This document shows, in pieces, positions 831-59,630 of a stretch of 64,000 bases of DNA. Source of the DNA: an uncultured Bacillales bacterium (lineage in GTDB: Bacteria; Bacillota_I; Bacilli_A; RFN20; CAG-449); NCBI GenBank assembly GCA_946641515.1, contig CAMPBT010000003.1, positions 56,079-120,078 on the forward strand, given 5' to 3'. The translations under genes and the position numbers were made by a program. The notes below the pieces were generated by a model, which made no database searches, was not told the origin of the DNA, and saw only the letters and a program-made list of their open reading frames with translations. The first letter of the stretch is position 1; each line of letters begins with the position of its first letter.

Positions 831-853
831 ATCACAATTCTAACTTTTTTTAT

Positions 854-1226
854 GGTGGACCTGCGGAGAGTCGAACTCCGGTCCGAAGCACATCCTATAT
901 AAGCCACTACAGTTTGTCTAACTAATAAAGTTTCATCTTAGTTATAGCTAATTAGCGAACCGCACCAAGACTAACCTATAAGATTTTCTACCTCTCCTTA
1001 TAGATATCGAAGAAGCCTATTCCCTAGTTATTACACCTTATCCCCTTCAAGGGACCAAAAGAGGTAAGATGCCTACCATCCCAAACGCGGGACTACATTA
1101 GAGGCTTATTAGCAAGCTGCGTAGGATAATTGATTTCTGTTGCCAGATATTTTTTTGTGGTTTTTAACGGTTTCCAGCCGACTGCGCCTTATACCAAACA
1201 TACCCCGTCGAAACCTGAACAAGCCC
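854..1226 (-). ncRNA. ssrA: tmRNA (ssrA)
   Basis: The minus-strand 3' end reads ...CGGAGTTCGACTCTCCGCAGGTCCACCA: a tRNA-like T-arm (CGGAG/CTCCG stem, TTCGACT loop) plus acceptor 3' strand and CCA. The 5' end reads GGGCTTGTTCAGGTTTCGACGGGG. The 7-bp acceptor stem contains a G3:U wobble (alanine identity). An internal candidate tag frame ends in a TAA TAA double stop. Length about 373 nt. Confidence 0.85.
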
Positions 1227-38152: not shown

Positions 38153-38270
38153 TTTTTGGATACTTATGTAACGCCTCTACTTTTATATCCTTTTATTAAG
38201 TATGATAATCGAGGCTTTTGAAAAAAGGCACGCGAATAAAATCATTAGTATAAATAAAGGAGAAAGAAAT

Positions 38271-38765
38271 ATGAAGTTATTAAATAGAGTTACATTATTA
38301 TCAGTCTTAGGTATCTCAGCATTAGTAGGTACAGGTTACGCTGCATGGACATTCTCTGCATCAGCAGAAAACAAAACAGCAAACGCAGCACTCTTAATCA
38401 CAGATGCAAACACTGTTGGTGAAATCTCATTCAAAACAAATACAGCAAAATTCACTTTAGATCAATCAGGTATCACATGGGAAGGTGAAATCGTTGCAGA
38501 TTATTCTTCAGTTGGTTCAGAAGTTGAAGATCCATCAATTGAAAAATCATGGACAGCAGCAATTCCTGCAGAATTAGCAACATACGTTACATTCGTAGAT
38601 GCTTCAACAACAATCTCAGGCACATGGGAAGATGATGTTGCAATCGTTTTACCAGAACTCGTTTACACAGCAAACAAGCCAACAACAAAATCAGCTTACG
38701 ATACAATGGTTAGCTTAATCTCAGAATCAAATATCACATTCACATTCTCAGCAACAATTGCATAA
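38271..38765 (+). CDS. small exported TasA/camelysin-like protein with SipW-cognate-type signal peptide (paralog A1)
   Basis: ORF 38202..38765. Start preferred at ATG 38271, with AAAGGAGAAAG RBS. N-terminus MKLLNRVTLLSVLGISALVGTGYAAWTFSAS. C-terminus ...NITFTFSATIA. Paralogous to 50973..51503 and 53022..53507. Confidence 0.7.
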   Translation: MKLLNRVTLLSVLGISALVGTGYAAWTFSASAENKTANAALLITDANTVGEISFKTNTAKFTLDQSGITWEGEIVADYSSVGSEVEDPSIEKSWTAAIPAELATYVTFVDASTTISGTWEDDVAIVLPELVYTANKPTTKSAYDTMVSLISESNITFTFSATIA

Positions 38766-38865
38766 TATATTTAATTAACTTACATATATAATAAATCGGC
38801 CGTAGTTCAGAAATGCACTTCGGCCATTATCATAAATAATGGTTCAAAGAAAGGAGGTACCAGTT

Positions 38866-39801
38866 ATGAAAAAAATCAAAATGATCTTAACAGCATTAAT
38901 TGGTGCTCTATTTCTTGGAACAGCCGCTGCTACAGTAGCTACAACAGGATTTGCAGCATGGACATTCTCTTCAAATTCTTACAACACTCAATCAATCAGA
39001 GGTGCAATAAACGAATGGGAATTTGCTTCTTATGAAAGCATCTTTGAATTTGATGAAGAAACAGGAACTATCTTATACATCAAACAAATCATTGATGAAA
39101 ATGGAACAGTCACTGTACCAAATGAAATTAACGGTGTCCCAGTTACACATATTGACAAGTATGCATTTAGCAATCAGCCTAGTTTAACATCAATTGTTAT
39201 CGAAGCAGAAAACTTAACAATTGAAAGCTATGCTTTCTATGGTGACTACAACTTAAAAGAAATCACTTTACCTTCTTCAACAAAATTACTCAAATATTCA
39301 TTTGCTAATTCAGGATCATATAACTCAGATACAAAGACATATTCAATTGACAGCGTTACATTCACAGGAAGCGCTACTGAATTAACAGGTAACCAAGTAT
39401 TCAAAGGATTAGAAATTAACACAATTACAATCCCTGCAATCGTTACTAACGTTGAAAAATCATTCTTCGATGGTGTTGAAGATTACGAAATGATCAATTA
39501 CGGTGGATCTGTTGAAGACTTCGTTGGTACAGATCATAACAACGATACATATTCAATCTTTGAAGGTTTAGTTTATAACTTACGTAATAGAAATGCTGGT
39601 ACATATGCTTACCAAGCTCCAACAGCATTAACAATCTCTGGCAGAGTATTCTACTTAAATCAAAGCAACTTTACACAGAACTTATTACATTACTACGCAG
39701 AAGATGGTTCATATATTGTATATAACTTTAACAATCGTGTTAAGGTTAGCGGCAGCACATACGATAACTCAAATTGCTACTATTATTACATTGCAGAATA
39801 A
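38866..39801 (+). CDS. exported BspA-type leucine-rich-repeat (LRR_5-like) protein with SipW-cognate-type signal peptide (paralog B1)
   Basis: ORF 38839..39801. Start preferred at ATG 38866, with AAAGGAGG RBS. N-terminus MKKIKMILTALIGALFLGTAAATVATTGFAAWTFSS. LRR_5-like repeats (VTVPNEINGVPVTHIDKYAFSNQPSLTSIVI...). Terminator at 39802-39840. Confidence 0.65.
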   Translation: MKKIKMILTALIGALFLGTAAATVATTGFAAWTFSSNSYNTQSIRGAINEWEFASYESIFEFDEETGTILYIKQIIDENGTVTVPNEINGVPVTHIDKYAFSNQPSLTSIVIEAENLTIESYAFYGDYNLKEITLPSSTKLLKYSFANSGSYNSDTKTYSIDSVTFTGSATELTGNQVFKGLEINTITIPAIVTNVEKSFFDGVEDYEMINYGGSVEDFVGTDHNNDTYSIFEGLVYNLRNRNAGTYAYQAPTALTISGRVFYLNQSNFTQNLLHYYAEDGSYIVYNFNNRVKVSGSTYDNSNCYYYYIAE

Positions 39802-40019: not shown

Positions 40020-40560
40020 CCTCTCACACCACGTAACGTGCCGTTCGGCATTACGCGGTTCAACTTACTTTTAAAGTATGCCTTGACATACTTTCCGCTT
40101 CTTCTCCTTTCCGCTTCTAAGATTTATTTCCTACGTATTGGATATTCTTTGAGATACGCTCATACCTTTTCCTGTCGGATATACCTTAGAAACATACATT
40201 TGTTAAAGCGATGTAAATTGTTTGGTCCTTCCTCTACTGAGTACTATGACCTCTGCTGACTTCCTATAGTTCGCTTTTCTAGGATTTCTCCTCTATAGGA
40301 CCTCACGGGATAAGTTATATATCTTTCCTCGTTTACCTACCTAATTTACGGATTAAGATTACGTTTGCCTTTTGGACTTTATTGCTTTTGGTCAACTTGT
40401 CCACTTAATTCGCCTTGATATTAGGTTTCTATTCGTTAGGCCACGATTTCGCTATCCCTTCTTTTCATGCGTAGTTACCTAGAGGCACTTTGGGAGTCGC
40501 TATCGGGTTGGTCGGCAAATACCTCTCTTCGGACTTTCATCGTAGATATATGACATGCCC
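40020..40560 (-). ncRNA. ORF-free, strand-asymmetric (purine-rich on minus strand) structured region; candidate large ncRNA of unassigned class
   Basis: About 540 nt with no credible ORF; the 73-aa frame at 40038..40259 is low-complexity. Multiple local hairpins, e.g. CGTAATGCCGAACGGCACGTTACG and GAAAGTATGTCAAGGCATACTTT. Bounded by the LRR-gene terminator at 39802-39840 and the rpsR terminator at 40566-40600. Strand assignment is tentative. Confidence 0.3.
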
Positions 40561-41665: not shown

Positions 41666-41860
41666 ATCTTTTACCTCCCTATGGTCTTATCTGGCTACTC
41701 CTAAATTAAAGTAGCAGAGAAGCTTTTGTCATGGGCCTTCACTCCCATTCTCTAATACTATAACTTAGTTATAGGAGGTTGTAAAGTAAAAATTGTCGAA
41801 CTTCTAATTCTCCTACACTAAATCTATACACAATTTTAAATAAAATCCCAAAAAATATTT

Positions 41861-43111
41861 TTATAACTTTTCTTTTCCTACTGCAATCATAAGTTTAATT
41901 CTATTTTCTTGATTGACTTTAGTTTGAGAAGGATCGTAATCAATTGCAACAATATTTGCTAAAGGATATTTATCCTTTAATTCTTTCATAACGCCTTTAC
42001 CACAAATATGGTTAGGTAAGCAACCGAATGGTTGAGCGCAGACAATGTTTTCATATCCAGTTTGAATTAATTCAACCATTTCTGCAGTTAATAAGAAACC
42101 TTCTCCCATCTTAACCGCGTGAGACAAAATTCCATTAGATAAATTGACTGTATGTTTAAAAGGCATCATCGGTGTAAAACTTGTATACTTTTCAATGGCT
42201 TTTATCATCAATTTTTCACGTTTTTCTAGGTATTTTATAAGTCCTTTGTAAATTAAATTTTTGATGGTAGAACCACCATAAATTTCTTTATCATACTGAG
42301 GAACATATAACGAATAATAAACAAAACCTAGAAGTCCTGGAACATTAACTTCGCATCCTTGTTCTACTAAAAATGTCTCTAAATTATTATTAGCAAGAGA
42401 AGCATATTTAACATAGATTTCTCCGACCACACCAACTTTAACTTTCTTTTCATTTGTAATTGGTAATTTATTAAATTCTTCACAAATATATCTATAATTT
42501 TTAGACATTTCACGTGCACCAATACCAGAACCATTTTTAAGTTTTTCTGCAAGAACTTTAGTTATTTTATTAACTAACTCTTCTGCAGAACCTTTTGTAA
42601 TTTCATAGCTTCTAGTCTTGTTGTAAAGATACATAATTAAGTCGCCATAAAAAACCGCTACACCTAATTTTGTTGCCATTTTTAAGTCAAGTTTAAAACC
42701 AGAATGTTCAAGTCCTTGCATAGAAACTGAAATAACAGGAACATGGCCAAATCCCGCTTTTTTTAACGCTTTTCTAAGTAAATAGATATAGTTAGATGCT
42801 CTACATCCTCCACCAGTTTGAGTAAGAATCAAAGCAACTTTTGAAGTATCTTCCATATGCTCTAAAGCATCAATAAATTGACCAATAACTAAAGTAGCAG
42901 GATAACAAGTATCATTATGAACATACTTAAGACCTACTTGAGCAACACCTTCAAAATTATCACAAACTTTGCATTTATATCCTGCTTGAACAAGGACTTC
43001 CTTCATAAGTTTCATATGAACATCAAGCATAGAAGGAATTAAGATTGTATAGTCTTTAACCATCTCTTTAGTAAAGACAGGATAATCAATTACTTTATTA
43101 TTTCTTTTCAT
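41861..43111 (-). CDS. 2-hydroxyacyl-CoA dehydratase family protein (HgdB/D-component-like)
   Basis: 416 aa. Overall resemblance to dehydratase beta/D-component proteins (Cys residues C...C...GGGC, conserved GxxG pockets). Overlaps the upstream fusion gene by 14 nt, as expected for an operon partner. Confidence 0.5.
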   Translation of the reverse strand: MKRNNKVIDYPVFTKEMVKDYTILIPSMLDVHMKLMKEVLVQAGYKCKVCDNFEGVAQVGLKYVHNDTCYPATLVIGQFIDALEHMEDTSKVALILTQTGGGCRASNYIYLLRKALKKAGFGHVPVISVSMQGLEHSGFKLDLKMATKLGVAVFYGDLIMYLYNKTRSYEITKGSAEELVNKITKVLAEKLKNGSGIGAREMSKNYRYICEEFNKLPITNEKKVKVGVVGEIYVKYASLANNNLETFLVEQGCEVNVPGLLGFVYYSLYVPQYDKEIYGGSTIKNLIYKGLIKYLEKREKLMIKAIEKYTSFTPMMPFKHTVNLSNGILSHAVKMGEGFLLTAEMVELIQTGYENIVCAQPFGCLPNHICGKGVMKELKDKYPLANIVAIDYDPSQTKVNQENRIKLMIAVGKEKL

Positions 43112-46013
43112 TTTTATCCTCCTTTTCTAAAGCAGCGAATAAAGATCTTAATCTAATCTTAACTGCACCTAAGTTAGTAATTTCATCAATCTTGATTTGA
43201 GTATAAATCTTGTTTTTAGCTTCTAAGATTTCTTTAACTTCATCAGTAGTAATAGCGTCAAGTCCACATCCGAAAGAAACAAGTTGAACAAGTTCCATAT
43301 TCTTTTTAGTACTTACATAGTTTGCAGCATTATATAGTCTTGCGTGATATGTCCACTGATTAAGAACATGACGAGGAAGCTTTTCAACTCTATTTGATAA
43401 AGAAGATTCAGTAATAACTGCTTTATCAAATCCTGCGATCAATTTATCAATACCATGATTAATTAATGGATCAACGTGATAAGGTCTACCACATAAAACA
43501 ACAATACGTTTTCCGCTTTTTTCCGCTTCTTCAATAATCTCTTCACCTTTACGACGAATATCGCTTAAATATGAAGAATATTCTGCGTAAGCTTTATCAA
43601 CTGCATTAAGAATATCTTTTTTCTTTAACGTACTATCAAACTTACGAAGAATAGGGACTATTCTCTTCTTAAAATATGGTTCATTATGTATACCAACATA
43701 ATCAAAGACATAATTAACATCTTGAAGTCTCATCACATTGTTATGCAATTGTTCTGGATAATACGCAACAACTGGACAGTTATAATGATTATCAGAAATC
43801 TTTTCATCAATATTATATGACATACCAGGATAGAAAATATTTGTATAACCTTCATTTAACAATTTTTCAATGTGACCATGAGCAAGTTTTGCGGGGAAAC
43901 ATTCAGTATCTGAAGGAATTGTATGTTGACCTGATGAATATAATTTTTCATTAGAAAAACCAGAATTATGAACTTCAAAACCAAGTTCAGTAAGTAATGT
44001 AAACCAGAAAGGATATAACTCATACATATTTAAACAAAGAGGAATACCAATCTTTGCTCTTTTGCCGTGTACTGGTTCATAAGAAGCAATTTTTTGTCTT
44101 ATATATTCATATAAGTTTAATGAATTATCTTGAGCTTTCTTAGTAAGAGGTCTTTCACATCTATTACCTGAAATATATCTATTTTTGTTATTAAAGACAT
44201 TAATAGATAAATCGCAGTGGTTATTGCATAATCCACATTTAGTATTAATAATCTTATGCTCAAAATTTTTAATTTCTTCTGCACTTAAAATATTAGATTT
44301 TTCTAATTCTAAATCTTTAGCATATAATGCAGCACCATACGCTCCCATTAAGCCAGCAATATTTGGTCTAATTACTTCTTTACCAAGCATCTGTTCAAAA
44401 GATCTTAAAACCGCTTCGTTATAGAAAGTACCGCCTTGAACAACGATATGATCACCTAACTTAGCAGTAGAAGTAACTCTAATAACTTTGTATAAAGCAT
44501 TTTTAACAACAGACATTGCTAAACCTGCAGAAATATTATCAATAGTCGCGCCATCTTTTTGAGCCTGTTTAACAGAGGAATTCATAAAAACGGTACATCT
44601 AGAGCCTAAATCTACCGGTTTTTTAGCAAGTAATCCAATACGAGCAAATTCACTGACATCATAACCAAGTGCATTTGCAAATGTCTGTAAGAAAGAACCG
44701 CATCCAGACGAGCATGCTTCATTTAAGAAGATGTTAGTAGTAATTCCGTGTTCAACTTTAAAACACTTAATATCTTGTCCACCGATATCAATAATAAAAT
44801 CTACATCTTTTTGGAAATGTTTCGCAGCTTCTAAATGTGCCATAGTTTCAACTAGCCCACCATCAAGTTGGAAAGCATTTTTAATTAAATCTTCACCATA
44901 TCCTGTTGAAGCGGCACCTTTAATTAATAAATCAGGTTTTAAATCATACATCTCAGTTAAGATGTCTTTTAACATCACAACTGGATTACCTTTATTAGGT
45001 AAATATTTAGTAAAACGAATATTTAAATCTTCATCAATTAAGCAAACTTTAATAGTAGTAGAGCCAGAATCAATACCTAAATAGAATGGTCCGTTATAAG
45101 AATCATCTAAAGGTAAAGTATTTACATACGCTTTAGCGTGTCTTTCTCTAAATTCTTTTAATTCTTCTTCATTATTAAATAATGGAGATAATGATTTGTA
45201 ATGACCTTTAGATTCATGATGTTCAATCTTATAAATTAAATCATCAATAGTCATCTCGCCATTTGCACTTAATGCTGCACCCATTGCAACATAATAAAGT
45301 GAATTAGGAGGACAAATACCTTTACATTTTAAAGTTTCATCAAAGCTCTTTTGAAGTTCACTCATAAATGTTAAAGGTCCACCTAAATAAACAATCTTAC
45401 CTTGAATATCTCTTCCTTGAGCAAGTCCACCAATAGTTTGATTAACTACAGCTTTAAAAATAGATGCTGCAATATCTTTTTTATCTGCACCTTGGTTAAG
45501 TAAAGGTTGAATATCAGTTTTAGCAAAAACACCACATCTAGAAGCAATGTTATAGATTTTGCCGTGTTCTTTAGCAATGTCATTTAAATCTTCAATTGAA
45601 ATATTAAGTAAGGTAGACATTTGGTCAATAAAAGCACCAGTACCACCTGCACAAGATCCATTCATTCTAACTTCAAGTCCATTAGATAAGAATAAAATTT
45701 TCGCGTCTTCCCCGCCAAGTTCAATGACACAGTCTGTACCTGGAATAAACTTATTCACTGCAACTCTAGTTGCATATACTTCTTGAACAAAATCAATGCC
45801 TAAATCTTCACAAAGTCCCATACCTGCAGAGCCAGAAATAGCAACATGTAATTCTGAATCACCTAACTTATTTTTAATATCTTTTAATATCTCTAAAAGA
45901 TTCTCTTTGATATGAGAATAATGTCTTTTATAAATATCATATTTAATATTCGTATTATCATCAAAAACAATTGCTTTAATTGTAGTTGAACCAATATCAA
46001 GTCCTAGTCTCAT
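43098..46013 (-). CDS. acyl-CoA dehydratase activase-related fusion protein: two BadF/BadG/BcrA/BcrD (HgdC-like) ATPase domains plus a C-terminal dehydratase-component-like domain
   Basis: ORF 43098..46031. Start preferred at MRLGLDIGSTTIKA (46013). A second actin-fold start motif YLGIDSGSTTIKVCL lies about 320 aa later. Cys cluster KCGLCNNHCDLS...GNRCERP. C-terminal half HgdB-like. Confidence 0.6.
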   Translation of the reverse strand: MRLGLDIGSTTIKAIVFDDNTNIKYDIYKRHYSHIKENLLEILKDIKNKLGDSELHVAISGSAGMGLCEDLGIDFVQEVYATRVAVNKFIPGTDCVIELGGEDAKILFLSNGLEVRMNGSCAGGTGAFIDQMSTLLNISIEDLNDIAKEHGKIYNIASRCGVFAKTDIQPLLNQGADKKDIAASIFKAVVNQTIGGLAQGRDIQGKIVYLGGPLTFMSELQKSFDETLKCKGICPPNSLYYVAMGAALSANGEMTIDDLIYKIEHHESKGHYKSLSPLFNNEEELKEFRERHAKAYVNTLPLDDSYNGPFYLGIDSGSTTIKVCLIDEDLNIRFTKYLPNKGNPVVMLKDILTEMYDLKPDLLIKGAASTGYGEDLIKNAFQLDGGLVETMAHLEAAKHFQKDVDFIIDIGGQDIKCFKVEHGITTNIFLNEACSSGCGSFLQTFANALGYDVSEFARIGLLAKKPVDLGSRCTVFMNSSVKQAQKDGATIDNISAGLAMSVVKNALYKVIRVTSTAKLGDHIVVQGGTFYNEAVLRSFEQMLGKEVIRPNIAGLMGAYGAALYAKDLELEKSNILSAEEIKNFEHKIINTKCGLCNNHCDLSINVFNNKNRYISGNRCERPLTKKAQDNSLNLYEYIRQKIASYEPVHGKRAKIGIPLCLNMYELYPFWFTLLTELGFEVHNSGFSNEKLYSSGQHTIPSDTECFPAKLAHGHIEKLLNEGYTNIFYPGMSYNIDEKISDNHYNCPVVAYYPEQLHNNVMRLQDVNYVFDYVGIHNEPYFKKRIVPILRKFDSTLKKKDILNAVDKAYAEYSSYLSDIRRKGEEIIEEAEKSGKRIVVLCGRPYHVDPLINHGIDKLIAGFDKAVITESSLSNRVEKLPRHVLNQWTYHARLYNAANYVSTKKNMELVQLVSFGCGLDAITTDEVKEILEAKNKIYTQIKIDEITNLGAVKIRLRSLFAALEKEDKNEKK

Positions 46014-46230
46014 TATAATACCCCGCTTCATTAAAAATTATAGGAGGGTATTTATTAAAAATAAATAAAATCCAAAATTTAAAAATTTTTTGTTATTATT
46101 TTCAAGTTGTTAATAGGCACTTTTAGAAAAAGTGTCTATTTACTTTGTTATATAAATAGATTAAAACTACTATTTACAAAAATTATTAAAATTTTAAATT
46201 GGTTTCATTATAATAAAGGCAGGTTAACAT

Positions 46231-47016
46231 ATGAGAAAACAAAAAACTGTTTATTACAAAGATGAAATTAATGATGATTTTGCAGGCACAAATATCATCA
46301 CTCAACCTCTACGAGAAGATTATCATTATGTCCATAAAGGTTTTGTATGGAACTTTTTTGCATTTATCTTCTATTGGATAATTGCTTTCCCATTAGTATT
46401 CCTAATCCAAAAGCTTTGGACACATCAAAAAATTGTTAATAAAAAAGTTTTAAAAGAAGCAAGAAAGAAAAAGACGGGATATTTTATTTATTGTAACCAT
46501 ACTCAGTTATTCTCAGATGCAGTTACTCCTGCTTTAATTGCTGCTCCTCATAAAGCATATGTCACTGCTCATCCAGACTGTGTCTCCATTCCACTAGTAA
46601 AAGTACTCGTAGAATGGGCAGGAGGGCTTCCATTAAGTTCTACATTCAAAGGAATGAAAAATATGTATCGAGCGATGGATTACCGCCTAAAACATAAAAA
46701 CGTTATTACTATTTTTCCAGAAGCTCATATCTGGCCTTATTATAATAAAATTAGACCATTTATCGATTCTTCATTTGCCTACCCTGTCAAATTCAACGTA
46801 CCAGTATACGCAGTAACTACTACTTATTACAAAAAGAAATATTTTATTAAGCCAAGAATTAAAACATTCGTAGACGGACCTTTCTATCCAGACCCTTCTT
46901 TATCTCCAGTAGAAGCTAGAGAAAAGTTAAGAGATCAAGTATATAACGTTATGTGTGAACGTGCGGAAAAATATTCCACATATGAATATGTTAAATACGT
47001 AAAAAAAGAAGATTAG
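46231..47016 (+). CDS. lysophospholipid acyltransferase-like (PlsC-family) protein
   Basis: 261 aa. N-terminal TM. NHTQLFSD (HX4-5D-like) and FPEAHIW (FPEGTR-like) motifs. Confidence 0.45.
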   Translation: MRKQKTVYYKDEINDDFAGTNIITQPLREDYHYVHKGFVWNFFAFIFYWIIAFPLVFLIQKLWTHQKIVNKKVLKEARKKKTGYFIYCNHTQLFSDAVTPALIAAPHKAYVTAHPDCVSIPLVKVLVEWAGGLPLSSTFKGMKNMYRAMDYRLKHKNVITIFPEAHIWPYYNKIRPFIDSSFAYPVKFNVPVYAVTTTYYKKKYFIKPRIKTFVDGPFYPDPSLSPVEAREKLRDQVYNVMCERAEKYSTYEYVKYVKKED

Positions 47017-47044: not shown

Positions 47045-48208
47045 CTATTTTTGATATAAATCAATAGCCTTTTTTAGTCTAGATAAAGCATCAATAACAT
47101 TACTTCTTTGAGTAGCAAGATTCATTCTCAAGAAAGATAATCCACCTTCTCCATATTCTTCTCCATCAGATAAATATAAACCTGTAGTATCTAAAATATA
47201 ATCTCTTAATTTAGTACCATTTGGTTCAACATTAGAAACATCTATCCAAAGTAAATACAAAGCATCTGATTCAATAACTTTTAAAGAAGGAATTTCTTTG
47301 TTAATGTAATCTCTAACATAATCTTTATTTGCAAAGACATATTCTCTTAATTCATCAATCCATTCTTCACCTTTATAGAACGCTAGTTGAGGAGCTATTG
47401 TTGCAAGAGTATTAGCTTCTGCACATTCATCAGTATTTAATCCTCTTTCAAATTTATGTTTTAAATATGGATTTGGAATAACCGCCATAGAGGTTTGAAT
47501 TCCCGCGATATTAAAGCATTTTGTAGGTGCAATTAATGTTAATGAATTATTTAAATTAGTTTCAGAAACTGATGCAAAAGGAATATAAGATTTTCCAGGT
47601 CTAGTTAAATCACCATGAACTTCATCAGAAATAACTACAACATTATATTTTTTACATAATTCACCAATTCTAATTAATTCTTCTTTAGTCCAAATCTTAC
47701 CAATTGGATTATGAGGATTACAGAAAATTAAAGCAGAAGTTTCTTCTAACGCTAATTTATTTTCTAAATCGGCCCAATCAACTTCATAAATTCCATCTTT
47801 ATATAAAAGTTTATTTTGTAATGGTTTTCTTCCATTATTAACAATTGAATTAAAGAATATATTATAGACCGGAGTCATAACCACAACATTATTTGCCACT
47901 TCAGTCAATCTTCTAACAGCAGAAGAAATAGAAGGAATAACACCTGTAGAAAAAACCATCCATTCTTTTTTTATTTCAAAATGATAACGTTTATTCCACC
48001 AATAGATATAAGATTCAAACATTGAAGGAGGAAGAATATTATATCCGTAAATACCTTGATTAATTCTTTCTTTAAATCCTTCAATAATTTCAGGAGCAGT
48101 CTCAAAATCCATATCTGCAATCCACATAGGAAGGACATTGTCCTTAACATCCCATTTAACCGAGTATGTATTACGTCTATTAGTAGGTTTATCAAAGTTA
48201 TATTTCAT
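47045..48208 (-). CDS. PLP-dependent C-S lyase (MalY/PatB-family cystathionine beta-lyase-like aminotransferase)
   Basis: 387 aa. Aminotransferase class I/II fold with the PatB/MalY N-terminus (KYNFDKPTNRRNTYSVKWD). Confidence 0.75.
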   Translation of the reverse strand: MKYNFDKPTNRRNTYSVKWDVKDNVLPMWIADMDFETAPEIIEGFKERINQGIYGYNILPPSMFESYIYWWNKRYHFEIKKEWMVFSTGVIPSISSAVRRLTEVANNVVVMTPVYNIFFNSIVNNGRKPLQNKLLYKDGIYEVDWADLENKLALEETSALIFCNPHNPIGKIWTKEELIRIGELCKKYNVVVISDEVHGDLTRPGKSYIPFASVSETNLNNSLTLIAPTKCFNIAGIQTSMAVIPNPYLKHKFERGLNTDECAEANTLATIAPQLAFYKGEEWIDELREYVFANKDYVRDYINKEIPSLKVIESDALYLLWIDVSNVEPNGTKLRDYILDTTGLYLSDGEEYGEGGLSFLRMNLATQRSNVIDALSRLKKAIDLYQK

Positions 48209-48213
48209 ATTAT

Positions 48214-49053
48214 TTACCCCTTAATAATAATTTCAGTTTTAGATGGATCAATTTCATTCTTATCCATAATTAATTCATCAATACCTTCACATACTAGTCT
48301 ACCAGAAATAATGTTCTTAACAGAATCAATACGAGAATTAATTTCACAATTAATTGTAGAATATTCAAATGCCAAGTTTGTATTTTCTAATTTACAATTC
48401 TCCATAACTAAGTTTTCCATATAACAGAAACCTTGTTCACTTTCGATTGTACAGTTAACTAATTTAACATTTTTAGAGTTCCAACCAAAATATTCACCTC
48501 TAATAACAGAATCGTAAACTTCAACATTTTCACAATTCCAAAATGAATCTTTTGAATTTAAGATAGAGTTTTTAACAACAATGTTCTTACCTCCATCAAG
48601 AATATAATTGCCATCTAAAATTAAGTTTTCAATTACTACGTCAGAAGAATCTTTTAATAAGTAATCCCCTTTAGCTTTAACATTCTTCATATTAATATGA
48701 TCACATGACCATAAAGTTTCTTTAGCATCCAAGAATTCAGTATCTTCAATAGTTATAAATGATGCTCTTCTAAATTCTTTAGGAGCTTCTACTAAGCAAT
48801 TCTTTAATTTAATGTTCTTTGTATACCAAATACCAGATCTAGACATAACTTTAAAAGTAGAATTATTAACTTCAAAGTTTTCTCCATACCATAAAGGATA
48901 TTTCCATTCAAACGATGAATTGTTTATAACAACATTCTTACTTTCTTTTAATGGAGATTCTCCATCTTTGAAAGTAGAATTATTAATAACTAAATCACGA
49001 GATTTAAAAAGTGCTCTTTCACCTGTAAAAGTACCATTTTCTAAAATTTTCAT
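48214..49053 (-). CDS. right-handed parallel beta-helix repeat protein (DUF3737-like)
   Basis: 279 aa of repeated about 22-aa units (VxNNSTF / NxxLxN...). 5 nt separate it from the patB-like gene, so likely co-transcribed. Confidence 0.5.
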   Translation of the reverse strand: MKILENGTFTGERALFKSRDLVINNSTFKDGESPLKESKNVVINNSSFEWKYPLWYGENFEVNNSTFKVMSRSGIWYTKNIKLKNCLVEAPKEFRRASFITIEDTEFLDAKETLWSCDHINMKNVKAKGDYLLKDSSDVVIENLILDGNYILDGGKNIVVKNSILNSKDSFWNCENVEVYDSVIRGEYFGWNSKNVKLVNCTIESEQGFCYMENLVMENCKLENTNLAFEYSTINCEINSRIDSVKNIISGRLVCEGIDELIMDKNEIDPSKTEIIIKG

Positions 49054-49464: not shown

Positions 49465-50499
49465 ATGACCACTTTTGCAACAGTAATTGTATTAATTATA
49501 TTGTCATTAATTATTTTCGCCTTTATTGGCGTTGCGTTATATTCTATTTTTAAATCAGAAAAAATTATTGTAAGTAGAAAAGAACGTGACCAGTTGATAA
49601 TTAAAGAACAGCAAAAAGAAAAGAAACCATCTAAAGCATCTAAAACTACTTCAATAGTATTTACAATCATTGGATATGTCATTGTATTTGGAATCTTAAT
49701 CTTTGAAGGATTTGCAGTTATTACTAATTCATCAAATAACTTATTGTTCATCGGAAACAATGCAAATTTAGTAGTAGCATCAGATTCTATGTCTACTATT
49801 GATAGTTCCGCTCAATTAGAAGCAAATGGTGGTTATTTGACAGACGATATGTTAAATGACCAATTCCAGATTGGAGATATTCTCTCTTTCTCAAAATTAC
49901 CATCTACAGAAAAAGAATTATTATCTTATACAGAAACCGGAGAACTAGAATATGTTGATGAATTAAATAAAAAAGTCAATTCTCCATATTTATATAAAGT
50001 ATTCGCATTCAAATACACTTTACCTGAAAAAGGTGAATCAATCGTATTACATAGACTTGTAGAAATTAGAGAAGTCTCTACTGCAAGTGGATCAACATAT
50101 CAATATGTTTTCATAGGAGATAAATATCCAAAATCAAGCCAAGTAGTAACTTATAAGAGTTTACTAGGTATTTATACTAGAGGAAGAATATCAGGGCTCG
50201 GATATCCAATTTTATTCTTAGGATCTGCTTATGGAGCCTACTCAGTTCTTGGAGCGTTATTCATTATTATCGCGACATCATACTTTACTAAAAAATTATC
50301 TAAGCTCTATTCAGATAGATATGACCAAATCAAAAAAGAAAAATTCGATACAGAATTCTCTTCAGACACATTTAAGAATCGTAGGCATGAAGTAGAAGAA
50401 AAAGTAATCGAAGCTGAAGAAGTTAAAGTCATCCCAAAAGATCATCAATCTCAAGAAGATGATAATTCAGATATTGGAAGTCTAAAGAAGAGAGATTAA
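49465..50499 (+). CDS. candidate ER/archaeal-type (SipW-like, Ser/His) signal peptidase I with extended architecture
   Basis: 344 aa. N-terminal TM (FATVIVLIILSLIIFAFIGVALY). Box-B-like VVASDSMSTI (Ser). Box-D-like IVLHRLVEI (His, not Lys). GDK segment. C-terminal TM (ILFLGSAYGAYSVLGALFIIIATSYF), as in SipW. Sits between cassettes of SipW-cognate-signal proteins. RBS AAGGAGGG. Confidence 0.5.
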   Translation: MTTFATVIVLIILSLIIFAFIGVALYSIFKSEKIIVSRKERDQLIIKEQQKEKKPSKASKTTSIVFTIIGYVIVFGILIFEGFAVITNSSNNLLFIGNNANLVVASDSMSTIDSSAQLEANGGYLTDDMLNDQFQIGDILSFSKLPSTEKELLSYTETGELEYVDELNKKVNSPYLYKVFAFKYTLPEKGESIVLHRLVEIREVSTASGSTYQYVFIGDKYPKSSQVVTYKSLLGIYTRGRISGLGYPILFLGSAYGAYSVLGALFIIIATSYFTKKLSKLYSDRYDQIKKEKFDTEFSSDTFKNRRHEVEEKVIEAEEVKVIPKDHQSQEDDNSDIGSLKKRD

Positions 50500-50972: not shown

Positions 50973-51503
50973 ATGAAATTATTAAATAGAGTCACATTAG
51001 TATCAGTCTTAGGCGTAGCAGCTGTCATCGGTACAGGTTACGCTGCATGGACATTCTCAGCAGACACAACTGCAAACGCTAACGCAAATGTATTAATCAC
51101 ATCAGCATCAGAACAGGCAGGTACAATCACATTTGATAAAACTGTTAAATTAGTACTTGATCAAGGTTGGATTGGTTGGATTGATGCAGGAGTAGCTCCA
51201 AAAGATGCATACACTAACGAAGATGCACTTGCTTCAATCGTACCAACATTAACTCCATATGCAGGTTCTGAAACATTAGTAAGCGAATACGCATTAACTT
51301 GTTCAGTTAATTACGGCAATTTTACAAATTACTTAAACTTCGGTGCTTTCGCAACAACATGGGAATCAGGTTCAGCAGTTGCTTTACCAACAGTTTCTTG
51401 GAAAGATGGAATGAAGCCAACAACATTAACTGAATACAATACAATGAAAACTGCACTTCAAAATTTACAAATTGTCTTTACATTTAATGCAGACGTTGCT
51501 TAA
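50973..51503 (+). CDS. small exported TasA/camelysin-like protein with SipW-cognate-type signal peptide (paralog A2)
   Basis: 176 aa. MKLLNRVTLVSVLGVAAVIGTGYAAWTFSAD. C-terminus ...QIVFTFNADVA. The first about 100 nt are roughly 85% identical to 38271... at the DNA level. Confidence 0.7.
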   Translation: MKLLNRVTLVSVLGVAAVIGTGYAAWTFSADTTANANANVLITSASEQAGTITFDKTVKLVLDQGWIGWIDAGVAPKDAYTNEDALASIVPTLTPYAGSETLVSEYALTCSVNYGNFTNYLNFGAFATTWESGSAVALPTVSWKDGMKPTTLTEYNTMKTALQNLQIVFTFNADVA

Positions 51504-51640
51504 TTAGATTAAAAAAAATGGCCGTAGTTCCTAGTGAGCTTCGGCCATTATATAGATATAACCATAATAAATATATATAAGTTAAATATTTATAATTATA
51601 TTAAATAATAAAAACCTACCACTATGAAAGGAGGGCAAAT

Positions 51641-52489
51641 ATGAGAAAGCATAAATTTTTAACTTTCCTATTAGCGTACAGTATCCTTTTTAGTGGTGTA
51701 ATGCTTAGTAGTTACGCTACTAAAGGCTATGCAGCCTTTACTTTCAGCGCTGAATCAACTAGTATAAATCCTGTTCCAACAGTAGTAACAAATTGGACAT
51801 TCAACAATCAAGAGCCAGGAACAACTATTGTAATCGATGGAAATGGTAATGCTACAATTTCTGGTGGAGAGCATGATGGTGAATCAGTAGAAATTACATA
51901 CGTTACTGATGATGAAGGAAATAGTTTAATCAATAATGGTTCTGTAACAACACAAATTGAAATTAATGAAGACGGAACAGTTTCAATCACTCAATTTGAT
52001 GTCACACCTGGATCAGGTTCAATTGGAGACATCAATTATATCTTCTATGGTGAAACTTTATATTTACCAAGCCAATACGTTATTGATGGGCAAGTATATC
52101 CTGTTTCTTCATTAGATCAACCGCTTAAAGTTGAAAAAGCTAAACTTTTAATTGGCATTGCAGCAGTTAACAATGTAATTGTACCTGAAGGATATGTATC
52201 CTTATGTGCTGAAGCATTCTACGGTAACAATTGTTCTTTCAAAACTCCAGTAGCCTTTAATTTACCTTCAACATTAACAAGTATTGGATATCACGCAATT
52301 GATTTAGCAGATAGCCCTAAAATTAATTACGCAGGTACAAAAGCTCAATTTAGAGCATTATCAAATAACTCCGGTAACTGGGTAGGAAGATCAAGCGGAT
52401 CTAACAATACTATTACAGTAACTTGTTCAGACGGAAATTTAACTGTAAGATACAATAATAATAATAATGGTACAATAACTATTTCTTAA
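51641..52489 (+). CDS. exported BspA-type LRR (LRR_5-like) protein with SipW-cognate-type signal peptide (paralog B2)
   Basis: 282 aa. MRKHKFLTFLLAYSILFSGVMLSSYATKGYAAFTFSAE. LRR_5-like segment IVPEGYVSLCAEAFYGNNCSFKTPVAFNLPSTLTSIGYHAI. C-terminal INYAGT motif shared with B1 (INYGGS). Confidence 0.65.
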   Translation: MRKHKFLTFLLAYSILFSGVMLSSYATKGYAAFTFSAESTSINPVPTVVTNWTFNNQEPGTTIVIDGNGNATISGGEHDGESVEITYVTDDEGNSLINNGSVTTQIEINEDGTVSITQFDVTPGSGSIGDINYIFYGETLYLPSQYVIDGQVYPVSSLDQPLKVEKAKLLIGIAAVNNVIVPEGYVSLCAEAFYGNNCSFKTPVAFNLPSTLTSIGYHAIDLADSPKINYAGTKAQFRALSNNSGNWVGRSSGSNNTITVTCSDGNLTVRYNNNNNGTITIS

Positions 52490-59482: not shown

Positions 59483-59630
59483 CCTTTCAGACCTAGTACG
59501 CCCAAAAGGATAGAATAAAATACATTGTGTTAGAATCCTTCCGCTAGCATTACCTAGATCAAGTTATTGGTCCCATAAGTCACACTTATGATCTCAGCCT
59601 AGTTTACTAAGCACCCATACTAAATTGTTT
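59483..59630 (-). promoter_or_regulatory. TPP (THI-box) riboswitch with SD-sequestering terminator hairpin
   Basis: Minus-strand RNA: UGGGUGCUUAG...GGCUGAGAUCAUAAGUGUGACUUAUGGGACCAAUAACUUGAUCUAGGUAAUGCUAGCGGAAGGA matches the THI element consensus (CUGAGA, ACCUGAUCUGGAUAAUGCCAGCG-AGGGA). Expression platform CCUUUUGGGCGUACUAGGUCUGAAAGG plus U7 lies immediately before the ATG at 59474; its 3' arm holds AAAGGA (SD). Confidence 0.85.

Follow-up and report, generated by a model that had tools for sequence, protein, structure and literature searches.

The window analysed here, a 64-kb stretch of contig CAMPBT010000003.1 from an uncultured Bacillales bacterium, contains two overlapping open reading frames (ORFs) of 977 and 416 amino acids on the minus strand, which together (41861..46031) most probably encode an anaerobic plasmalogen synthase, PlsA-PlsR. 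We refer to the two genes as plsA and plsR (Table 1). The original prediction for this locus had placed both ORFs correctly, and the two motifs it quoted are present at residues 9-22 (LGLDIGSTTIKAIV) and 317-331 (YLGIDSGSTTIKVCL) of the 977-aa protein. It had interpreted the pair as an orphan 2-hydroxyacyl-CoA-dehydratase-like system with a double-activase fusion, an HgdB-like partner and a substrate that could not be named. The window has a G+C content of about 30%, and its ORFs are uninterrupted when read with genetic code 11.

The coding sequences of plsA and plsR overlap by 14 nt. Translation of plsA probably begins at the ATG at 46013 (Met7), yielding a product of 971 aa. This start is preferred because a GCGGGG stretch lies about 8 nt 5' of it and because a public protein 99% identical to the window PlsA (P0001), located on a syntenic metagenome contig, has been called as 971 aa. 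Translational coupling of the two genes is likely, given their overlap and the AAGGAGG sequence that precedes plsR inside the end of plsA.

Table 1. Positions of the plsA-plsR genes, their domains and signals, and the adjoining genes in the window; residues are numbered in the 977-aa and 416-aa ORFs
Feature	Position	Strand	Description
plsA	43098..46031	minus	977-aa ORF; order activase 1, activase 2, 4-Cys linker, Red1 (DUF2229)
Activase (BcrAD_BadFG) ATPase domain 1	45261..46013	minus	residues ~7-257; TIGR00241 at residues 7-254; cluster cysteines C127, C166
Activase ATPase domain 2	44313..45086	minus	residues ~316-573; PF01869 at residues 318-571; C440, C444, C479
Linker CxxCxxxC...C	44157..44237	minus	C599, C602, C606, C625; putative extra Fe-S (or metal) site
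Red1, DUF2229 domain	43101..44054	minus	residues ~660-977; predicted catalytic subunit of HAD/BCR/DCCP fold; invariant C711, C752, C922
plsR (Red2)	41861..43111	minus	416-aa ORF, predicted second catalytic subunit; invariant C69, C103, C364
plsR Shine-Dalgarno AAGGAGG	43118..43124	minus	within 3' end of plsA, 6 nt ahead of ATG 43111
Divergent intergenic region 5' of plsA	46032..46230	none	presumed promoter region
Palindrome AATAGGCACTTTT-AGA-AAAAGTGTCTATT	46112..46140		13-bp arms, near-perfect; between the starts of plsA and the acyltransferase gene
Acyltransferase, PF01553 PlsC/LPLAT family	46231..47016	plus	membrane protein; divergent from plsA
PatB-family C-S lyase	47045..48208	minus	TIGR04350, E 6e-120
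DUF3737 protein	48214..49053	minus

Activase tandem, linker and reductase halves

The 977-aa protein is matched in two stretches by Pfam PF01869 (BcrAD_BadFG, E 1.2e-62) and likewise by NCBIfam TIGR00241 (acyl-CoA dehydratase activase, E 1.1e-75), and PF09989 (DUF2229) occupies residues 660-877 (E 4.2e-69). Both ATPase domains keep the nucleotide-binding motifs DxGSTxxK, GGxDxK and GG. Conservation was scored on an alignment of the window proteins with orthologues from 80 related genome loci, which show 48-71% identity to the window PlsA. Across these relatives 304 of the 977 positions of PlsA and 78 of the 416 positions of PlsR are conserved at 95% or more. The cysteines of both activase domains are invariant, with C127, C166, C440 and C479 kept in 80 of 80 sequences. 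Domain 2 aligns to the activase HgdC (PDB 1HUX, E 4.5e-30), with C440 opposite HgdC C127 and C479 opposite HgdC C166. Each HgdC protomer supplies two ligands, C127 and C166, to a bridging [4Fe-4S] cluster. In domain 1 of PlsA, C127 and C166 lie within the motifs NxxCAGGTG and SRCxVF, matching domain 2. Since the ligand cysteine pair and the nucleotide motifs are kept in both domains, the tandem is a covalently linked activase 'dimer', which sustains the earlier description of two BadF/BadG/BcrA/BcrD-type ATPase domains forming an internal dimer. The cysteine cluster reported behind them is also borne out: the four cysteines of the linker are conserved in 80 of 80 sequences and aligned in the PlsA of Clostridium perfringens as well. 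They are predicted to bind a further Fe-S cluster, or a metal, at the junction of the activase module with the reductase module.

The reductase module consists of the DUF2229 half of PlsA (Red1) and of PlsR (Red2), with three invariant cysteines in each. The profile searches proposed along with the original prediction were successful in part: PF01869 and PF09989 gave strong matches, and PF06050 (HGD-D) stayed below threshold in the 416-aa protein (residues 62-135, E 2e-5; score 24.8 bits, cutoff 28.4). The C-terminal half of PlsA has no HGD-D match in Pfam, and the 416-aa protein is also weakly matched by DUF2229. At the sequence level, neither the Red1 half nor a profile of 40 PlsR sequences found a meaningful match among all PDB chains.

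We built AlphaFold2 models of the two halves with homologue alignments and searched them with Foldseek; both models are of high confidence. The model of the DUF2229 half has a predicted local distance difference test (pLDDT) score of 83.5; that of the 416-aa protein has a pLDDT of 84.7 and a predicted template modelling (TM) score of 0.87. The top 13 matches of the 416-aa model are all catalytic subunits of 2-hydroxyacyl-CoA dehydratases (HAD), benzoyl-CoA reductases (BCR) or double-cubane cluster proteins (DCCP), with query-normalised TM-scores of 0.40-0.47. They comprise benzoyl-CoA reductase (8s02, 9g87, 9gai), 2-hydroxyisocaproyl-CoA dehydratase (3o3m, 3o3n) and double-cubane cluster protein (7yyl, 7yzm, 6eno), the best being 8s02_B (3.4e-6), 3o3m_B (3.9e-6) and 7yyl_A (2.2e-5). 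The model of the DUF2229 half is matched by members of the same families only. Both models are thus consistent with the dehydratase-like C-terminal half and HgdB-like partner of the original prediction. Red1 and Red2 align with each other just around the first cysteine motif (DTxCYPAKL and NDTCYPA, respectively); they are distant paralogues, a relationship expected for the alpha and beta partners of a pseudo-symmetric pair. With three invariant cysteines, each half would conform to the HAD-type pattern, a [4Fe-4S] cluster with one open coordination site. Because there is no sequence-level structural match and HGD-D is sub-threshold, we infer Fe-S content and catalytic mechanism from the fold and the cysteine pattern only.

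Probable assignment to PlsA-PlsR and its alternatives

The original prediction had regarded the family as known but uncharacterised. Its architecture was in fact characterised in 2021 as PlsA-PlsR (Jackson et al., ACS Chem Biol 16:6): according to later papers, the C. perfringens operon plsA-plsR (CPE1194/1195) is responsible for plasmalogen formation, and the substrate is a diacyl glycerophospholipid, not acyl-CoA (PMC9702350, PMC10191378, PMC12838417). A single gene encodes these modules in Enterococcus faecalis, Lactococcus cremoris and Bifidobacterium longum (PMC9702350, PMC10191378, PMC12838417). To obtain a reference locus, metagenome contigs were scanned with the gene-specific part of the published C. 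perfringens forward primer (PMC12838417 Table S6), which yielded eleven contigs. On one of them (L084) both C. perfringens primers match exactly and lie 4,199 bp apart, the reported size of the CPE1194/1195 fragment. There the first gene opens with TTG at the forward primer (L-Y-Y-K-I-G-I-D...), and the reverse primer falls on the stop codon of the second (...E-Y-I-L-N-N, stop). The termini encoded by the primers for C. perfringens, E. faecalis and L. cremoris were found in none of 240 database proteins, which included those obtained with the Clostridium subterminale orthologue as query.

The window PlsA is 55% identical to C. perfringens PlsA over 973 aa with 10 gap positions, and the window PlsR is 50% identical to its counterpart over 414 aa; all invariant cysteine motifs are aligned between the two pairs. 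The window thus has full-length homology to an experimentally validated member, together with the activase tandem, ligand cysteines in both of its domains, DUF2229 C-terminal to the tandem and an adjoining PlsR. The order of its domains, B-B-D and then a second reduction domain, agrees with the published descriptions of PlsA/PlsR and of E. faecalis PlsA (PMC12838417, Fig. 8 legend). The C. perfringens genes (UniProt Q8XL48/Q8XL47) are colinear with those of the window, with two activase domains, the 4-Cys linker, Red1 and Red2, and have nearly the same total length, 4,199 bp against 4,171 bp. The two loci differ in spacing, with an 8-nt intergenic gap in C. perfringens and the overlap in the window, and in their flanks, which hold a radical S-adenosylmethionine (SAM) gene and a two-component system in the former and rpsF-ssb-rpsR and an acyltransferase in the latter. 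They also differ in host: the window pair probably belongs to an uncultured anaerobic Bacilli/Acholeplasmatales-like organism of the gut or rumen.

PlsA has at least 8000 homologues, the best at 65-99% identity. The nearest come from metagenome-assembled genomes (MAGs) of Bacilli/Bacillales from rumen and yak omasum (71%), from Acholeplasmatales (64-68%) and from Anaeroplasma/Anaeroplasmataceae (66%); MAG labels among the closest relatives also include Erysipelotrichaceae and Clostridia. These MAGs come from rumen and gut anaerobes, which would fit an anaerobic host for the window pair. Plasmalogens have reportedly been described in Anaeroplasma membranes by Langworthy et al. in 1975 (J Bacteriol); our literature check on plasmalogens in Anaeroplasma returned incidental co-mentions only. 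Published surveys list plsA/plsR genes in Erysipelotrichales and many Firmicutes (PMC9702350). On two plsA-plsR contigs labelled Elusimicrobiaceae and Treponema (L005 and L006), PlsA is 66% identical to that of the window, a value on a par with those of Anaeroplasma and of some of the Acholeplasmatales loci. This suggests either mis-binned contigs or horizontal transfer across phyla.

A PlsR homologue is present in 77 of the 80 related loci, and plsR directly follows plsA on the same strand in all 74 where both are readable, which makes their pairing or fusion obligatory in this set. Six of the 74 carry a single fused ORF of 1393-1433 aa; the other 68 have separate genes, with spacings that mostly range from -17 to +58 nt. 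The fusions would tie PlsA functionally to PlsR, mirroring the single-gene form of E. faecalis. Two Clostridia-type loci (L065 and L074) have wider gaps of 1,773 nt and 686 nt, which may reflect an insertion between the genes. Single-gene PlsA from E. faecalis (EF1327/Q835P9), L. cremoris and B. longum has been validated by heterologous plasmalogen production (PMC12838417). By its description the single-gene enzyme has the order Act1, Act2, Red1, Red2 of the window pair; the E. faecalis protein, at 1415 aa, falls into the length class of the six fused relatives, whereas the window represents the split form.

The genome-context comparison, likewise proposed with the original prediction, confirmed the plsA-plsR pairing and revealed no other conserved neighbour. 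The acyltransferase, PatB and each of the rpsF-ssb-rpsR genes turn up near plsAR in just 1 of the 80 related loci, and DUF3737 is not found there at all. When 559 flanking ORFs from 82 loci were clustered without supervision, no family was present in more than 8 loci. The acyltransferase, PatB and DUF3737 were rejected as functional partners on these counts, and plsAR is a self-contained two-gene module. A CoA-transferase or hydroxy-acid dehydrogenase is found neither in the 64-kb window nor as a conserved neighbour across the 82 loci. The original prediction had noted this absence nearby, as well as the acyltransferase, PatB-like C-S lyase and DUF3737 neighbours, and both observations are accurate. 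The absence had been presented as a puzzle; it is expected if the substrate is a membrane glycerophospholipid rather than acyl-CoA.

We favour plasmalogen synthesis as the function of the pair because of the colinear C. perfringens match, the split two-gene form and the gut/rumen Firmicutes-like host. Several points count on the other side. The function in this organism is predicted from sequence and models, and the view covers 64 kb of the genome, so that paralogues may occur elsewhere. The reductase halves lack a sequence-level match to solved structures, and HGD-D is below threshold. The doubt that remains comes from Ger-type glycerol ester reductases, homologues of PlsA with the same B-B-D and H/D domains, which reduce the ester fully to a saturated 1-O-alkyl ether, possibly also at sn-2. 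A 2026 study (PMC13274423) holds that Ger and PlsA are at present impossible to tell apart by primary sequence, no signature being known, and speculates that two activation domains, as found in the window protein, correlate with alkyl-ether production.

We nevertheless consider a Ger-type activity unlikely at this locus. The full-length 55% and 50% matches are to the validated plasmalogen-forming pair of C. perfringens, which likewise carries two activase domains. The layout, too, is that of C. perfringens: both validated Ger enzymes (Thermotoga maritima Tmari_0479/AGL49404 and Desulfatibacillum alkenivorans SHJ90043) are described as single polypeptides comprising plsA and plsR, whereas the window has two ORFs with their own starts and stops and with a Shine-Dalgarno sequence. 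The relatives of the window are gut and rumen Firmicutes, classic plasmalogen producers. Set against the window by their descriptions, the Ger enzymes share the homologous B-B-D and H/D architecture, are active under anoxia only and act on the sn-1 ester of glycerolipids, and differ in yielding a saturated alkyl ether. Somewhat less credible still is a variant in which the pair acts on another lipid class (for example, glycolipids of Mollicutes-like or wall-less Bacilli), makes Ger-like saturated ethers, or combines with the acyltransferase at 46231..47016 into a local ether-lipid remodelling unit.

The reading of the original prediction, an orphan member of the HAD/BCR/DCCP superfamily acting on a soluble substrate (acyl-CoA or a small molecule), is superseded by the C. 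perfringens homology and now seems very improbable. Its appeal lies in the reductase folds, which match HAD, BCR and DCCP subunits, and in the database names of the homologues ('acyl-CoA dehydratase activase', '2-hydroxyglutaryl-CoA dehydratase'). These names, however, were assigned automatically at family level and either predate the 2021 work or take no account of it. Identity to HAD/BCR/DCCP enzymes is only about 6-13%, with no sequence-level PDB match, compared with 50-55% to PlsA/PlsR, and the 82 loci offer no CoA-transferase, dehydrogenase or other conserved partner. An inactive pseudogene pair retained by chance is scarcely conceivable, with both ORFs and their ATPase and cysteine motifs intact, high conservation across relatives and a strong Shine-Dalgarno sequence ahead of plsR.

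The labels of public pipelines invite the reading of an orphan fermentation enzyme at such loci, and the practical value of the assignment lies in correcting the annotation. If the genes are plsA-plsR, an uncultured gut/rumen lineage of Bacilli is predicted to make vinyl-ether membrane lipids under anoxia; such lipids bear on membrane physiology, on tolerance of oxidative stress and on lipid signalling between host and microbe. The enzyme family is already known and expected in this lineage, and its presence raises no new question. The locus touches one wider problem, the distinction of plasmalogen synthases from Ger alkyl-ether synthases by sequence.

Proposed reaction and comparison with related enzymes

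As a plasmalogen synthase, PlsA-PlsR would act on membrane glycerophospholipids that are already assembled, turning their sn-1 acyl ester into a 1-O-alk-1'-enyl (vinyl) ether in an oxygen-independent reaction. By analogy with HgdC, the fused ATPase domains would hold one [4Fe-4S] cluster between C127, C166, C440 and C479. A low-potential donor, ferredoxin or flavodoxin, would reduce this bridging cluster, as in HAD, BCR and DCCP, and ATP hydrolysis would then push the electron into the catalytic module, possibly via the invariant 4-Cys linker. The catalytic module would be a pseudo-symmetric, cluster-bearing heterodimer of Red1 (the DUF2229 half) and Red2 (PlsR), an arrangement supported by the natural gene fusions. 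The ester carbonyl would be reduced to a hemiacetal in two successive one-electron steps with protonation, and loss of water would give the vinyl ether; this part of the scheme follows the literature proposal for C. perfringens PlsAR as quoted in PMC8788747. The net two-electron reduction would have energetics like those of BCR or DCCP, with stoichiometric use of ATP.

The dehydratases HgdAB+HgdC and HadBC+HadI share with the window pair the superfamily fold and an ATP-dependent activase, a likeness of superfamily membership only. Their activase is a separate homodimer, whereas that of the window is an internal tandem fusion, and their catalytic subunits are about 10% identical to the window reductase halves. 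HAD systems act on CoA thioesters and belong to fermentation operons with a CoA-transferase and a dehydrogenase, neither of which occurs in the window; the fermentation-operon setting is missing here along with an above-threshold HGD-D match. The HAD reaction is redox-neutral, in contrast to the net two-electron reduction that PlsAR would need.

DCCP with its reductase DCCP-R and the class I benzoyl-CoA reductases (BzdNOPQ, MbdONPQ) are closer in principle, with an ATP-coupled, stoichiometric low-potential reduction and an activase-like reductase docked on a HAD-fold subunit, as envisaged for the window pair. DCCP and BCR are also among its top structural matches (7yyl, 7yzm, 6eno, 8s02, 9g87). 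In DCCP, a homodimer, six cysteines of one subunit hold an [Fe8S9] double cubane; the window pair instead has two distinct subunits, and each of them contributes three invariant cysteines. DCCP and BCR do not act on lipids, their substrates being small molecules or aromatic CoA esters.

Flanks of plsAR and other features of the window

Promoter and terminator consensus scans around the operon produced matches no more frequently than in shuffled sequence. The palindrome in the divergent intergenic region was scored as terminator-like by the scan; because it is flanked by two gene starts, it is more likely a putative operator for some regulator than a terminator. No TetR-type regulator adjoins the window plsA, in contrast to E. 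faecalis EF1327, for which an upstream TetR/AcrR regulator is described.

The divergent acyltransferase gene gives weak profile matches (PF01553, 28.2 bits; TIGR00530, 28.9 bits, cutoff 103). In the catalytic motif of its product, NHTQLFSD, the spacing is H-x5-D instead of the usual H-x4-D. Its adjacency to plsAR is suggestive, as it encodes a lipid enzyme, yet among the 80 related loci it is repeated just at one, L005. The DUF3737 (beta-helix) and PatB-family (cystathionine-beta-lyase-like) genes (47045-49053, minus strand) are 5 nt apart and keep the same order on a contig of the same species (L092); they look like an operon.

Downstream of plsR lie rpsF-ssb-rpsR and, farther on, gdpP-rplI-dnaB, a conserved near-origin housekeeping block of Bacilli, and the locus therefore belongs to the chromosomal core. 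The plsR stop is separated from the rpsF start by a 195-nt spacer (41666-41860) with a G+C-richer stretch right before rpsF. Of the promoter-like sites in the region scanned, the best lies here (TTTACA-17-TATAGT, 41785..41757, on the minus strand). The spacer gives no Rfam match at gathering score, and it may represent the promoter and leader of the rpsF operon. Directly downstream of rpsR, Rfam matches to group II introns occur at 40225-40484 on the minus strand (group-II-D1D4-3, 96.6 bits; D1D4-1, 46.9 bits). They fall within a gap of about 800 nt that lacks ORFs of 80 aa or more, and no match to D5/D6 was reported; beside rpsF-ssb-rpsR there could thus be a group II intron that is truncated or has no ORF.

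The N-terminus MKLLNRVTL.S.LG..A..GTGYAAWTFSA is common to two sets of small secreted proteins which, together with the gene for a 344-aa protein, occupy 38202-39801, 49465-50499 and 50973-52489. The 344-aa protein carries an SDSM/HRLVE signal-peptidase-like signature and has no significant Pfam match; the original prediction had called these loci 'SipW cassettes'. The first secreted set ends at 39801, and between it and the signal-peptidase-like gene lie about 9.7 kb of genes unrelated to them (rpsR-ssb-rpsF, plsR-plsA, the acyltransferase, patB and DUF3737). The window also contains a full-length transfer-messenger RNA (tmRNA) gene at 853-1226 (minus strand, 127 bits) and a thiamine pyrophosphate (TPP) riboswitch at 59518-59628 (minus strand, 60.9 bits).

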